This document shows, piece by piece, positions 12,946 to 15,542 of a stretch of DNA of 64,000 nt. Where the stretch lies: positions 43,084 through 107,083 of the forward strand of contig CAXXLV010000001.1 in NCBI GenBank assembly GCA_963664305.2, given 5' to 3'. The DNA is from an uncultured Aliarcobacter sp. GTDB taxonomy: Bacteria; Campylobacterota; Campylobacteria; Campylobacterales; Arcobacteraceae. The position numbers were made by a program, and so were the translations under genes. The notes beneath the pieces are model-generated. The model saw only the letters and a program-made list of their open reading frames with translations, had not been told where the DNA came from and ran no database searches. Position 1 is the first letter of the stretch, and each line of letters starts with the position of its first letter.

Positions 12946-13260
12946 CTAGACAAAAAAGTTTAAACCAAGAGCAGCAAGTGCAACCACTAAAGATTTTGTT
13001 TTTAAATCATCAACTATTTTTCTCTCTTCATCAGCAATTATTATTTCTAACTCTTCATCACTATAATCATCAAAAGTTTTATGATTTTCAACAAGTCTAG
13101 CTTTTGTTGCAAGAACAGCTTTTTCTCTAATTTTTGAATTTATTGCATCTTTTAATTGTTGGCTTTTTATTTTTGGATAATCAAATGCTTTTGTGGCATT
13201 TTCACTCGCTATATTTAATAACTTATTAGAATTTTCTTTTAATTTATCTTTTATTCCCAT
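12946..13260 (-). CDS. Hypothetical helical protein with a C-terminal hydrophobic tail
   Basis: 104-aa ORF ending SLVVALAALGLNFFV. Confidence 0.8.
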   Translation of the reverse strand: MGIKDKLKENSNKLLNIASENATKAFDYPKIKSQQLKDAINSKIREKAVLATKARLVENHKTFDDYSDEELEIIIADEERKIVDDLKTKSLVVALAALGLNFFV

Positions 13261-13346
13261 GTTTTTTCCAATTAAATTTATTTTATTCTAGCATTTAACA
13301 ATTAACAAAATTTTAAAAAAGTGATTTTTTATAAAGATAAAGATAT

Positions 13347-13376
13347 TAAATAATGGCTTTAAATAGCCATTATTTA
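13347..13376. terminator. Hairpin downstream of the 37-aa small ORF
   Basis: 12-bp stem TAAATAATGGCT/AGCCATTATTTA. Confidence 0.7.
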
Positions 13377-13406
13377 TAAAAAGTTTTCTAAATTTTAGAA
13401 AACAAC

Positions 13407-13520
13407 TTAAAGAATATACTCCCAACGTGGATAAGCTGCTGCTATTGCTTTCATTTCATCAAATTTAAATACTTTGATGATTTTGAATCTTCCACTTGTT
13501 AAAAATGCTTTTATTCTCAT
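13407..13520 (-). CDS. Small ORF absent from the ORF track, 37 aa: MRIKAFLTSGRFKIIKVFKFDEMKAIAAAYPRWEYIL
   Basis: Hand translation; AGGA RBS (TAGGATTCAAAA-ATG); downstream hairpin; fills an otherwise empty intergenic gap. Confidence 0.75.
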   Translation of the reverse strand: MRIKAFLTSGRFKIIKVFKFDEMKAIAAAYPRWEYIL

Positions 13521-13650
13521 TTTTGAATCCTAGTATTTTCGTATGAAAATAATATTAAATTTTAAATAATAATATACTTAAATAATATATATTTTTATAT
13601 ATTTTTTTTAAATTTATGATATACTTTTGCATATTATTTTTGGAAGTAAG

Positions 13651-13872
13651 ATGGATAAGGATAATTTCAAATTATTATTAAAAAAGGCAAACTTCAATAA
13701 ACGCACATTTTCTGAGCATTTGGGGTTAAAATATCAAAGTGTAAACTCGTGGGGAAACAATGGAAGGAACATTCCTTATTGGGTTGAGTCTTGGCTACAT
13801 TTGTATATTGATAACAACAAATGTAAACAAATAAAAGATATGTTAAAAGATAGTGGGATTTGTAATCAGTAA
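13651..13872 (+). CDS. Cro/XRE-like helix-turn-helix protein (73 aa)
   Basis: FKLLLKKANFNKRTFSEHLGLKYQSVNSWG...IPYWVESWL pattern. ATG 13651 preferred over the track start 13627 (extended -10 TGaTATACT at 13617-13625). Confidence 0.8.
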   Translation: MDKDNFKLLLKKANFNKRTFSEHLGLKYQSVNSWGNNGRNIPYWVESWLHLYIDNNKCKQIKDMLKDSGICNQ

Positions 13873-13881
13873 ATTATTTAA

Positions 13882-13910
13882 TCTCTTAAAAAATAAGTTT
13901 TTTAAAGAGA
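13882..13910 (+). terminator. Hairpin downstream of the HTH gene
   Basis: TCTCTTAAAAAA-TAAG-TTTTTTAAAGAGA, one bulge. Confidence 0.55.
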
Positions 13911-13979
13911 AAGCCGTAACAAAGTCTTATTTAAGTATACTATACATTAAATACGCAAATTTTAAATAAGGGAAGATTA

Positions 13980-14279
13980 TTGGAAGCACAATATGAAAAA
14001 ATCATTGTACTAATTATTGTAATTACAGCTTCAGCAATGACATGGAAAATGGTAAAAGATTTTTATAGCACAAAATTTCATAAAATTTTTGCCCATTTAA
14101 TAGCAGTAATCACTGGTTCGTTTATGCTGTTATCTTCAATGATTTTATTTGTACCTAAAAACTATCAAAGAGGCGCAGGCCCCGAAGTAGAACTAACTTT
14201 TGTAGGTGTTTTAACTGTAATTGTAATGTTAGCAGTTTTATATCTATTCTTCAAATATATACCAAATAACAAAAAATAA
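13980..14279 (+). CDS. Hypothetical 3-TM membrane protein
   Basis: 99 aa, TTG start with an AAGGGA RBS, three hydrophobic segments. Confidence 0.75.
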   Translation: MEAQYEKIIVLIIVITASAMTWKMVKDFYSTKFHKIFAHLIAVITGSFMLLSSMILFVPKNYQRGAGPEVELTFVGVLTVIVMLAVLYLFFKYIPNNKK

Positions 14280-14300: not shown

Positions 14301-15535
14301 ATGCAAGCATTTTTAGAAGAGGCTAAAAAATCTAGCCGAACTATTGCAAATCTAAGTACTGCTGTAAAAAATAAAGTTTTAAACGAAATGGCAGATGCTT
14401 TAATGAATCATTGTGATTTTATAATATCACATAATGAAAAAGATATGAGTGAAGCAAGATTAAATAATTTAGGAGAAGCTTTACTTGATAGATTACTTTT
14501 AACAGGTGATAGAGTAAAAGATATGGCTGATGCAATTAGACAAATTGCATCTCAAACAGAACCTGTTGGAAGAATTTTAGATGGTTGGGTTACAAAAGAT
14601 GGATTAAATATTCAAAAAGTATCTATTCCAATTGGAGTAATTGGAATCATTTATGAAAGTAGACCAAATGTAACAAGTGATACAGCAGCTCTTTGTTTTA
14701 AAAGTGGAAATGTATGTGTTTTAAAAGGTGGGAAAGAAGCCGAACACTCAAATAAAGCAATTGCTATGGTTTTAAGAGAAGTATTAACAAAAAACAAACT
14801 TCCAGAACAAGCTATTTCACTACTTCCTGATTCAAGTAGAGAAGGTGTTGCAAAACTTATAAAACAAGATAAATTTGTTGATTTAATTGTACCACGAGGT
14901 GGAGAAGCATTAATAAGATTTGTAAGTGAAAACTCATCTATACCAGTTATTAAACATGATAAAGGAATTTGTCATATTTATATCGATAAAGATGCAGCTG
15001 CTGCAAAAATCATTGATATAGTAACTAATGCAAAATGCCAAAGACCAAGTGCTTGTAACTCTATAGAAACTCTGTTAATTCACGAAGATATAGCTCCATA
15101 CATAATAAATGGATTAGAAGATGCATTTTCAGAAAGAGGAACTATTTTAAAAGGTTGTGCAGAAACTTTAAAATACATCAAAGTAATTCCAGCAACTTTA
15201 GAAGATTTTGATACAGAATATTTAGCAAATATTTTAAATATTAAAATTGTAAAAAATATGGATGAAGCAATTACACATATTCAAAGACATGGTTCAGGAC
15301 ACTCTGAATCAATTTTAAGTGAAAACTATACAACAGTAAATAGATTTTAAATGAAGTTGATGCTGCTTGTGTTTATGCAAATGCAAGTACAAGATTTACT
15401 GATGGTGGAGCATTTGGACTTGGAGCTGAAGTTGGTATTTCAACAAACAAACTTCATTCAAGAGGACCAATGGGAATAAATGATTTAACAACATTTAAAT
15501 ATAAAGTTTACGGTTCAGGTCAAATTAGAAATTAG
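14301..15535 (+). pseudogene. proA: Gamma-glutamyl phosphate reductase, frameshifted (or a homopolymer sequencing error)
   Basis: IYESRPNVT, PRGG and ACNSIE motifs. The ORF stops at 15350 (AGA TTT TAA), but [32 protein letters not shown]...RGPMG continues in another frame to TAG at 15535. One extra T in the T4 run at 15345-15348 restores a 411-aa protein. Confidence 0.9.
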
Positions 15536-15542
15536 GAAAAAA

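Follow-up and report, generated by a model that had tools for sequence, protein, structure and literature searches.

What are two very small, oppositely oriented genes doing between housekeeping genes on the chromosome of an uncultured Aliarcobacter, and do they belong together? The pair lies within a 64-kb stretch of one contig (the window, 64,000 nucleotides), where the initial annotation had described a 37-aa peptide gene divergent from a 73-aa helix-turn-helix (HTH) gene. This layout of ORF, spacer, HTH gene and hairpins is confirmed in the window: the peptide ORF was found together with its ribosome-binding site, as were the AT-rich control region (130 bp, positions 13521–13650) and the HTH gene (Table 1). 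The latter begins with the ATG at 13651, not 13652, and is preceded by GGAAG at 13642–13646. A further 45-aa ORF (13288–13425, MGVY...) proved to be an artefact whose ATG arises from the conserved RWEY codons of the peptide gene. The pair is flanked by genes for a 632-aa membrane protein, two small proteins and ProA, in an order that is syntenic genus-wide, and this gene content agrees with the early remark that phage and integrase genes are missing from the neighborhood.

Table 1. Features of the divergent gene pair, in window coordinates.
Feature	Position	Strand	Details
Distal terminator-like hairpin 3' of the 37-aa gene	13347..13376	-	12-bp perfect stem, 6-nt loop, U-rich tail
Proximal hairpin immediately 3' of the 37-aa stop	13383..13403	-	10-bp stem, then UUUUU
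Gene for 37-aa basic mini-protein, MKIK...RWEY family	13407..13520	-	predicted beta-beta-alpha-beta fold
Shine–Dalgarno AGGA of the 37-aa gene	13528..13531	-	7 nt 5' of ATG
Candidate -10 box, promoter of the 37-aa gene	13549..13554	-	TATTAT; conserved block among 30 aligned orthologous spacers
Candidate operator O2	13587..13602	+	ATATATTTTTATATAT, 1 mismatch to ATATRCTTTTRYATAT; over the -35 region of the HTH promoter
Candidate extended -10 box, HTH promoter	13617..13625	+	TGATATACT, near-invariant among orthologues
Candidate operator O1	13619..13634	+	ATATACTTTTGCATAT, exact match to ATATRCTTTTRYATAT
Gene for 73-aa XRE/Cro-type HTH regulator	13651..13872	+	long C-terminal helix, residues 43–67
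Weak strain-specific hairpin 3' of the HTH gene	13882..13910	+	-7.4 kcal/mol, z = -2.7

The 37-aa ORF (MRIKAFLTSGRFKIIKVFKFDEMKAIAAAYPRWEYIL) is a genuine protein gene, conserved and under selection. It is intact in 38 of the 44 species genomes of the genus, its median dN/dS is 0.26, and its variable sites are distributed 22/13/30 over the three codon positions, so that neither of the findings proposed as refuting a coding function, internal stops or a dN/dS near 1, applies. The codon-position pattern and the dN/dS likewise rule out an RNA element in place of a protein, and an Rfam search of positions 13200–14050 returned no RNA family. Homologues reach into further genera, with identities falling to about 28–43% and lengths always of 35–38 aa, and an AGGA or GGAG Shine–Dalgarno motif stands ahead of every one of them. 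A profile search of 1.84 billion proteins recovered 72 clusters, nearly all of them stand-alone proteins of 35–38 aa, sharing the signature M-K-I-K ... R-W-E-Y. The peptide had been reported as missed by gene prediction, which holds for the ORF track accompanying the window but not for public databases, since NCBI and UniRef contain identical or near-identical 37-aa products named ‘hypothetical protein’.

The peptide is net basic, rich in aromatic residues and devoid of cysteines and transmembrane segments, much as first described. Its AlphaFold2 model is confident (pLDDT 91.5) and shows a beta-beta-alpha-beta arrangement of three strands (residues 2–6, 12–16 and 32–36) and a helix (residues 20–29). 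Neither the window peptide nor any of the 31 aligned members of its family matched a family in Pfam, NCBIfam, PHROGs or PADLOC, and no entry of PDB or BFVD matched the model in Foldseek with E < 0.6, the best sub-significant matches being half-ubiquitin-like fragments together with uncharacterised proteins of about 40 aa from phages. The MKIKV..G start of the peptide and the presence of thiD next to the locus in relatives bring ThiS/MoaD-like proteins to mind; this assignment was rejected, as the peptide has no C-terminal Gly-Gly and comprises only half a beta-grasp.

For the opposing gene, sequence and fold support a small phage-type regulator of the XRE/Cro-like class, in line with the resemblance to small phage repressors that had been pointed out at the start. 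The protein, named ‘XRE family transcriptional regulator’ by NCBI, matches PHROG 8898 at 6e-17, and its gene has a median dN/dS of 0.10. The window protein itself matches no Pfam or NCBIfam family at E ≤ 1 and thus falls below the curated thresholds of the XRE/Cro-C1 group (Pfam HTH_3 clan); among 20 homologues, sub-threshold Pfam matches were to HTH_3 in eight and to HTH_26 in seven, and the best was to HTH_19 (E 1.2e-4). The model (pLDDT 91.8) is a helical bundle superposable on solved XRE/Cro-C1 members, with Aca1 as best Foldseek match (probability 1.0, TM 0.61) followed by Aca2, HipB, HigA2, CylR2, Stl and lambda cI; probabilities were 0.8–1.0 for Aca1, Aca2, HipB, HigA2 and CylR2, and 0.44–0.66 for lambda cI. 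A redox or metal switch operating through the two C-terminal cysteines was considered and discarded, the first cysteine being replaced by tyrosine in several orthologues.

With the HTH model most similar in structure to Aca1, Aca2 and Aca7, and a very small phage protein of no known family as its partner, the locus could be an anti-defence unit, in which an Aca-like repressor would control a 37-aa inhibitor of a host defence system. Aca1 and Aca2 (PDB 7c0g, 7vjn, 7vjp), the closest solved folds, are also proteins of about 70 aa in which an HTH is followed by a C-terminal dimerisation helix, and they bind palindromic promoter sites and autoregulate. Sequence similarity to them is nevertheless insignificant: the Aca1 match is one of fold only (E about 0.02), and a sequence profile search of the PDB did not recover Aca1. 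In known acr–aca loci one operon holds both genes, with acr immediately upstream; here the two genes are divergent in every copy. PADLOC returned nothing save one weak, non-significant HTH match (DUF3780, E 0.012), and a gene of this type would bring no obvious benefit once fixed in a host core genome. An anti-defence function is accordingly very improbable.

Hairpins do occur at both ends of the locus, as initially stated, except that the peptide side carries two rather than one. Together these two fold at -21.1 kcal/mol (z = -6.1), a value reached by none of 200 shuffled sequences, and the palindrome at 13349–13374 is unique within the window. The bounding of a self-contained cassette, on the other hand, turns out to be specific to a clade. 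The GGCU hairpin on the peptide side is found in the closest relatives only, many species having a mere 40–50 nt between the peptide stop and the start of the next gene, and in related strains the 44 nt that contain the HTH-side hairpin (13866–13909) are replaced by 9 nt. Terminator-like structure is thus strong on the peptide side in this strain and missing in many species, and weak and strain-specific on the HTH side.

Far more constant than the hairpins is the pairing of the two genes. Of the 47 peptide homologues in 184 genomes of the family, 45 have a counter-oriented HTH homologue within 125–800 bp, and the two that do not are located at contig ends. The co-occurrence in other genomes that had been proposed as a check is thereby borne out, and the proposed refutation, that they would be unlinked elsewhere, fails. 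The counter-oriented pair is also present in another family and in a metagenome-assembled genome. Across the genus the gene order is msc, 128 aa, 104 aa, peptide, HTH, (thiD), (99 aa), proA, and two genomes (G040 and G008) display the empty site, with the pair missing. The HTH tree, in which the chromosomal branches are short, can be reconciled with one origin (support 78/90; 80% of bootstrap trees). Judged from these sequences, the pair in the genus is consistent with one acquisition between the 104-aa gene and thiD/proA.

The pair descends from a temperate phage. Its diverged copies are carried by prophages or plasmid-like elements, where replication genes, ParAB, antirepressor-like genes and small-ORF blocks adjoin them; their neighbors include WYL_2, antirepressor-like ORF6N and AntA genes, Rep-O and an SNF2 helicase, as well as VRR-NUC, ParA/ParB, P63C and SocA-Panacea. 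The peptide gene is further carried by an IMG/VR contig and by a phage contig of 41 kb that also has YopX, NinG and RecT; tblastn against GenBank phage records matched neither protein, and against PLSDB plasmids the peptide had no match. The module does not occupy the cI/cro position in these mobile copies; it is found either downstream of the replication genes or convergent with them. The peptide gene is usually followed by translationally coupled genes of varied kind, is preceded by other genes in several elements, and is duplicated in tandem in one. The divergent orientation holds in every mobile copy. Peptide and HTH identities among these copies are uncorrelated (r = 0.12), so that co-evolution of the two proteins was not detected by this comparison, and in more distant phage contigs the peptide gene is found in the middle of long phage operons with no adjoining HTH gene.

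These copies bear directly upon the toxin–repressor reading offered among the first suggestions. A type II toxin-antitoxin pair would join an HTH antitoxin to a 37-aa toxin, and the small size of the genes, their tight co-occurrence and the HigA2- and HipB-like fold of the HTH protein all accord with it. However, instead of one bicistronic unit, the genes occupy opposite strands and have separate promoter regions, and the peptide has no toxin-family match in Pfam, NCBIfam, PHROGs or PADLOC and no significant match of fold. The chromosomal locus is syntenic and vertically inherited rather than patchy, while in mobile elements the peptide belongs to long phage operons, is coupled in translation to varied downstream genes, and is shuffled independently of the HTH gene, with no co-variation of the two proteins. 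A toxin-antitoxin system is on these grounds extremely improbable. Among the functions originally listed (minimal switch, toxin–repressor pair, anti-repressor module), a repressor or switch-type module of phage origin fits best, and the toxin/antitoxin option is weak, given the divergent genes and the lack of a toxin-family match.

The spacer between the genes is 122–132 bp long in 30 orthologues. It holds two copies of the motif ATATRCTTTTRYATAT, 32 bp apart over the HTH promoter, their starts falling in most orthologues at -64 and -32 relative to the HTH ATG; compared with its flanks, the spacer is 58-fold enriched for the motif, and the two copies are the only matches with at most one mismatch in the whole window. 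Candidate operator O1 extends over the candidate -10 box of the HTH promoter and over its probable transcription start. Both clear copies are on the HTH side, with a third near the peptide promoter only in some orthologues; the -10-like box of that promoter is TATTAT in the window and TATAAT in most orthologues. Two conserved 16-bp copies resemble lambda-type repeated operators, but the DNA is AT-rich, the copies overlap a -10-like TATACT, and protein binding is a prediction. From its sequence, ATATRCTTTTRYATAT, which contains TATACT, could also be a duplicated promoter element in very AT-rich DNA rather than a binding site. An alternative operator composed of TTGCATAT/ATATGCAA flanking both promoters, seen in some species, is absent from the window and was dismissed. 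The available RNA data consist of low-depth metatranscriptome contigs from related strains and flat 8-kb contigs from isolate runs, neither of which gives transcript ends or strand.

Might the two genes simply be neighbors? The HTH protein would in this case be a host autoregulator heading a thiD-(99 aa)-proA unit, with an independent 37-aa gene sharing its intergenic region. The HTH stop and the thiD start overlap or adjoin in many species, and because of this overlap part of the HTH conservation may derive from heading a housekeeping operon; both clear motif copies, too, are on the HTH promoter. Linkage may be positional and not functional, moreover, because identities are uncorrelated in mobile copies and distant phage contigs carry the peptide without the HTH. 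Yet the counter-oriented pairing recurs in at least ten independent mobile contexts that have neither thiD nor proA, and in the window genome the pair is intact although the locus lacks thiD and has a hairpin after the HTH gene. Nor does the O1/O2 motif reveal a host regulon, which was rejected on finding 16 genome-wide matches versus 10 for a reversed control. Mere adjacency is therefore distinctly unlikely.

Operator-like repeats over the promoters would also suit the remnant of a cryptic prophage maintained by addiction, in which the HTH protein is a former immunity repressor and the peptide a toxic, kil-like early product, the pair persisting since loss of the repressor would kill. DicA–DicB of Qin is a cryptic-prophage repressor with a toxic early gene. 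In the Rac prophage of E. coli, as here, an HTH repressor (RacR) is divergent from small early genes, the toxic YdaS/YdaT (PMC5700373, PMC5700377). By analogy with the Rac and Qin systems, the present locus may be a remnant that has kept a small HTH repressor divergent from small genes, with sites in the shared intergenic region; these two are the only surviving genes of the element, and two homologues give weak matches to YdaS_toxin, a Cro-like HTH family. The parallel with Rac stops at several points: YdaS is itself a Cro-like HTH whereas the peptide is a beta-beta-alpha-beta mini-protein, and Rac varies by strain within one species whereas the present pair is syntenic throughout a genus. 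Addiction, furthermore, guards the repressor and not the toxin, yet here the peptide is under purifying selection with synonymous sites near saturation. The position of the mobile modules relative to replication genes, away from a cI/cro location, and the tandem duplication of the peptide gene also speak against such a remnant, which is considered unlikely.

The preferred reading, judged moderately probable, is that the locus is a phage-derived two-part module of a small XRE/Cro-type transcription factor (TF) and a counter-oriented 37-aa gene, with the layout of the TF-smORF modules discussed below. The module is consistent with one capture, in an ancestor of the Arcobacter-group genus; since then it has been inherited vertically under purifying selection, and the rest of the element has disappeared. 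A dimer of the HTH protein is predicted to bind the two 16-bp sites O1 and O2 in the spacer; their location on the HTH gene's own promoter suggests autoregulation, and from the same region the protein would govern the opposing promoter that serves the 37-aa gene. The effector would be the 37-aa product, modelled as a basic three-stranded sheet with one helix. A protein of this size is too small to be stable alone, and so is probably a dimer or bound to a partner. In phages, relatives of the gene are found among early or accessory small genes near functions for replication and partition, which makes a regulatory protein of phage or host the most likely partner; by analogy with published systems it might be the element's master repressor. 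Within this reading, the coding status, conservation and linkage of the genes, their phage ancestry and the repeated motif are shown, and DNA binding, the sign of regulation and the peptide's target are inferred.

One could go further and picture the genus as having domesticated this module. The XRE protein would then restrain a 37-aa antirepressor-like effector and free it on a specific cue, such as a signal given by a resident element or by a phage entering the cell, whereupon the effector would strike the repressors or regulators of related temperate elements, forcing or blocking their induction. The pair would be a controller of prophage fate or a sensor of infection and not a dead remnant. 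This extension is quite unlikely as matters stand. If the peptide indeed acts upon phage repressors or a host target, the locus would represent a host-side use of a phage decision module. Should it have no such role, the locus is still a clean example of a small gene that pipelines annotate inconsistently. In either event, a well-supported, unnamed family of 35–38-aa proteins, with a confident fold and a sharp signature, is added to the poorly charted small proteins of phages, and a module type that decides prophage induction can apparently outlive its phage and be selected in the core genome of a genus. The two-gene pair would also offer a simple system for studying micro-protein action in Campylobacterota.

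Among well-known switches, the back-to-back promoters with repeated operator-like sites between a repressor gene and an opposing operon recall the cI–OR–cro region of lambda. Unlike the lambda arrangement, the gene opposite the HTH is not Cro-like (the peptide model contains no HTH), the HTH protein has no cleavage or oligomerisation domain, and related elements have the module downstream rather than upstream of their replication genes. A closer parallel is provided by the TF-smORF modules that govern lysis induction in temperate, mostly linear plasmid-like phages (Silpe et al., Nature 2023, PMC10432266). In these, a TF, often of XRE type, has a counter-oriented, usually unannotated smORF about 150 nt upstream, as exemplified by VqmA_Phage-Qtip of VP882, TF72-smORF72 and the XRE(-LuxR)-smORF modules of Aeromonas phages; the modules share their logic and not their sequence, and occur by replication or partition genes or among small variable ORFs (PMC10432266). 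The TF activates the smORF promoter, and the resulting protein of 51–79 aa inactivates the master repressor without proteolysis (PMC10432266). The initial annotation knew of no description of the layout; a TF with a counter-oriented, unannotated small ORF had in fact been published in that work (PMC10432266).

The likeness extends to the small ORF close upstream of the TF, here across a spacer of 130 bp, and to the settings of the mobile copies, one with ParAB alongside (L041) and another with Rep-O, a helicase and VRR-NUC (L035), which correspond to the replication/partition and small-ORF-block locations of the phage modules. The temperate-phage context itself is found only for diverged paralogues and phage contigs, and no cI-type repressor separate from the HTH protein was identified in related elements. 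Further differences are the length of the small protein (37 aa, against 51–79 aa) and the usual continuation of the mobile copies into translationally coupled genes. Above all, in contrast to the phage-borne modules, the window copy lies between housekeeping genes and is fixed in the core chromosome of a genus. While the layout had already been published (PMC10432266), the novelty lies in the protein family and in its having become fixed throughout a genus without being part of any phage.

The arrangement of peptide gene, spacer, helix-turn-helix (HTH) gene and hairpins described in the initial annotation was confirmed in the sequence, and the small ORF proves to be a genuine, conserved protein-coding gene. 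When 184 family genomes were searched in six frames, 38 of the 44 that belong to the genus had an intact copy, as did a few other genera, with homologue identity extending down to about 28–43%. All copies span 35–38 codons and carry an AGGA/GGAG motif upstream (AGGA, 7 nt before the ATG, in the window), and they share a signature of N-terminal M-[KR]-I-K, a glycine around residue 10 and R-W-E-Y towards the C-terminus. Pairwise comparison of 30 syntenic orthologues gives a median dN/dS of 0.26, with 22/13/30 variable sites at codon positions 1/2/3. When a profile was run against 1.84 billion representative proteins, it recovered 72 clusters, almost all stand-alone proteins of 35–38 residues; public records list the peptide solely as 'hypothetical protein'. 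The peptide is basic (net charge about +3 to +5), and its family is new, with no match in Pfam, NCBIfam, PHROG or PADLOC. An AlphaFold2 model based on a 31-sequence alignment (mean pLDDT 91.5) places strands at residues 2–6, 12–16 and 32–36 and a helix at 20–29, and has no significant structural neighbor in PDB or BFVD. Judging by the periodicity of these elements, the helix probably packs onto the invariant Trp and Tyr, which would leave one sheet face open, where conserved Lys4, Arg32 and Glu34 suggest a dimer or partner-binding surface.

A 45-residue ORF overlapping the peptide gene (window 13288–13425, minus strand) was rejected as spurious. The conserved RWEY codons create a frame-shifted ATG, so that ORF finders call a following ORF starting MGV[YCS]IM, an artefact recurring at homologous positions in seven compared loci (L031, L034, L035, L038, L039, L046, L049). 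In mobile copies, the start of the following gene usually overlaps the peptide stop codon, and this true downstream gene begins at the second Met; the window has no such gene.

Linkage to the regulator is nearly complete when viewed from the peptide. Of 47 peptide homologues in family genomes (E below about 0.01), 45 face a head-to-head HTH homologue on the opposite strand 125–800 bp away, and the two unpartnered copies both lie at contig ends; the pairing recurs in one genome from a different family (L046) and in a MAG (L054). The expectation that the peptide would be conserved and co-occur with the HTH was thus borne out. The converse linkage fails, many HTH homologues having no nearby peptide. 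The window HTH protein itself has no Pfam or NCBIfam match, while its homologues show sub-threshold matches to HTH_3, HTH_26 and HTH_19, and orthologues in Arcobacter cloacae and Aliarcobacter butzleri are named 'XRE family transcriptional regulator' by NCBI. It matches PHROG 8898 (no assigned function) at 6e-17 and gives weak matches to two PHROGs annotated 'transcriptional regulator'. Its model (pLDDT 91.8) comprises three short helices and a long C-terminal helix (residues 43–67), most closely resembling Aca1 (probability 1.0, TM 0.61, 28% identity), followed by Aca2, Aca7, HipB, HigA2, CylR2, Stl and lambda cI. The median HTH dN/dS is 0.10. A second, distant HTH homologue (32% identity) occurs in the same genome (L002, G000:C2:799521-799703), with no peptide gene detected there.

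Features of the peptide–HTH locus, in window coordinates
Feature	Position	Strand	Details
Peptide ORF	13407-13520	-	37 aa, MRIKAFLTSGRFKIIKVFKFDEMKAIAAAYPRWEYIL
Spacer	between peptide and HTH ORFs		130 bp, very AT-rich
Conserved block ATTNTA	13549-13554		TATAAT/TATTAT on peptide strand
Conserved block CTTAA	about 13577		
Conserved block ATAT...TTTATATAT	13587-13602		
Near-invariant block TTTATGATATACTTTTGCATATT	13612-13634		contains extended -10-like TGATATACT
HTH ORF	13651 (ATG) to 13872	+	73 aa, GGAAG upstream
Two hairpins after peptide stop	13383-13403, 13347-13376	-	U-rich tail on each
Weaker hairpin after HTH gene	13882-13910		z = -2.7

The spacer between the two genes measures 122–132 bp in 30 orthologues and holds a repeated 16-mer, ATATRCTTTTRYATAT, found exactly at 13619–13634 and with one mismatch at 13587–13602, these being its sole matches in the 64-kb window when up to one mismatch is allowed. 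In orthologues the two copies begin at positions -64 and -32 relative to the HTH ATG, and the motif is 58-fold enriched in spacer versus flanks, some species having a third copy at -78, on the peptide-promoter side. Genome-wide it is barely enriched (16 matches vs 10 for the control), and the regulator therefore looks local. We infer that these copies are candidate operators, a reading kept at that level in view of the AT-rich DNA and of the -10-like hexamer within the motif.

The hairpins proved less general. The two on the peptide side give -21.1 kcal/mol together (z = -6.1 vs shuffles), but strong hairpin structure at this end is confined to the nearest relatives; elsewhere 40–50 nt separate the peptide stop from the start of a 104-aa gene, and that gene carries an extended -10 box of its own (TGNTANAAT). 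The 44 nt carrying the HTH-side hairpin (13866–13909) are replaced by 9 nt, ATAAAGAAA, in related-strain contigs from all four RNA runs, a small indel, strain-specific, through which a terminator-like hairpin is gained or lost. Rfam has no family match in the region. Since the hairpins are clade-specific, the initial description of a self-contained, hairpin-bounded cassette fits this strain and not the module. In wastewater metatranscriptomes, related-strain contigs span the HTH and one low-depth contig the peptide, and isolate RNA runs gave 8-kb contigs of flat depth; these assembled contigs carry no information on strand, transcript ends or translation.

Within the genus, the gene order is 632-aa membrane protein, 128 aa, 104 aa, peptide, HTH, (thiD), (99-aa membrane protein), proA. 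Genomes lacking the pair have an empty site, with 90 bp between the 104-aa gene and proA in one (G040) and the 104-aa gene directly faced by thiD-proA in another (G008). The HTH protein tree is compatible with a single origin of all chromosomal copies (support 78/90, 80% of bootstrap trees), and their branches are much shorter than those of mobile copies. The simplest history is that DNA of a temperate element was transferred into the chromosome, where all but these two genes were lost and the pair was then inherited vertically under selection; this genus-wide chromosomal fixation is new.

The HTH stop overlaps or abuts thiD in many species. This thiD-like kinase gene (251 aa) directly follows the HTH gene in many members of the genus (L009 1955-2716; L023 3471-4226), its start overlapping the HTH stop in L009 and L020, and is missing at this locus in the window genome (13873–13979). 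The 99-aa protein (13980–14279), with predicted membrane helices and no family match, is conserved in most of the genus, where it lies between HTH/thiD and proA, and is lacking in some species. Next to it, proA (gamma-glutamyl phosphate reductase, 14301–15540; orthologues 411–412 aa) is split in the assembly: its frame stops at 15350, 349 aa in, and ~60 aa of conserved C-terminal sequence continue in another frame; the shift, in a T-run at about 15345–15348, is either real or due to a sequencing error.

More diverged copies of the pair sit in prophage or plasmid-like elements, where the peptide's small-gene neighbors include WYL_2, an unknown 70-aa gene and ORF6N or AntA antirepressor-like genes. 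At one locus (L035) the peptide adjoins Rep-O, an SNF2 helicase and VRR-NUC. On a plasmid-like element (L041 3341-3558, G138:C5) it lies directly upstream of ParA-ParB, duplicated as two diverged tandem 37-aa genes between these and the counter-oriented HTH. An IMG/VR viral contig carries the peptide after helicase, VRR-NUC and DUF3310, and a 41-kb phage contig carries it with YopX, NinG and RecT, the adjacent HTH being absent from both; the counter-oriented position is taken by a different small HTH in one further metagenomic element. At L037 (435-2971, G043:C2) the HTH heads an operon with P63C-domain, SocA/Panacea-domain and unknown 342-aa proteins downstream, which may represent toxin–antitoxin cargo of the Panacea type, or defence cargo, with expression coming from the regulator's side. 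As for the pair itself, peptide and HTH identities are uncorrelated among mobile copies (r = 0.12; L034 vs L035, peptide 78%, HTH 34%; L038 vs L040, peptide 47%, HTH 77%), which argues against a tightly co-evolving pair such as a toxin–antitoxin. The initial interpretation is supported in part: the conserved peptide gene and its HTH linkage stand, the hairpin-bounded module does not, and the toxin–antitoxin option is disfavoured.

We favour a domesticated transcription factor (TF)/small-ORF module, in which the HTH would act locally, regulating its own gene and either activating or repressing the peptide gene. The initial annotation knew of no description of this architecture, yet it belongs to a known kind. 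The main alternative analogue is the RacR-YdaS/T remnant of E. coli (PMC5700373, PMC5700377). Among published systems, the nearest is the TF-smORF module of temperate phages: there a TF, in many cases XRE, switches on an unannotated small ORF that lies about 150 nt upstream in counter-orientation, and the product of this ORF inactivates phage cI without proteolysis (PMC10432266). Those modules share no mutual sequence similarity and are located close to repA-telN or parB, or within blocks of small variable ORFs (PMC10432266), genomic contexts that match those of the copies found here.
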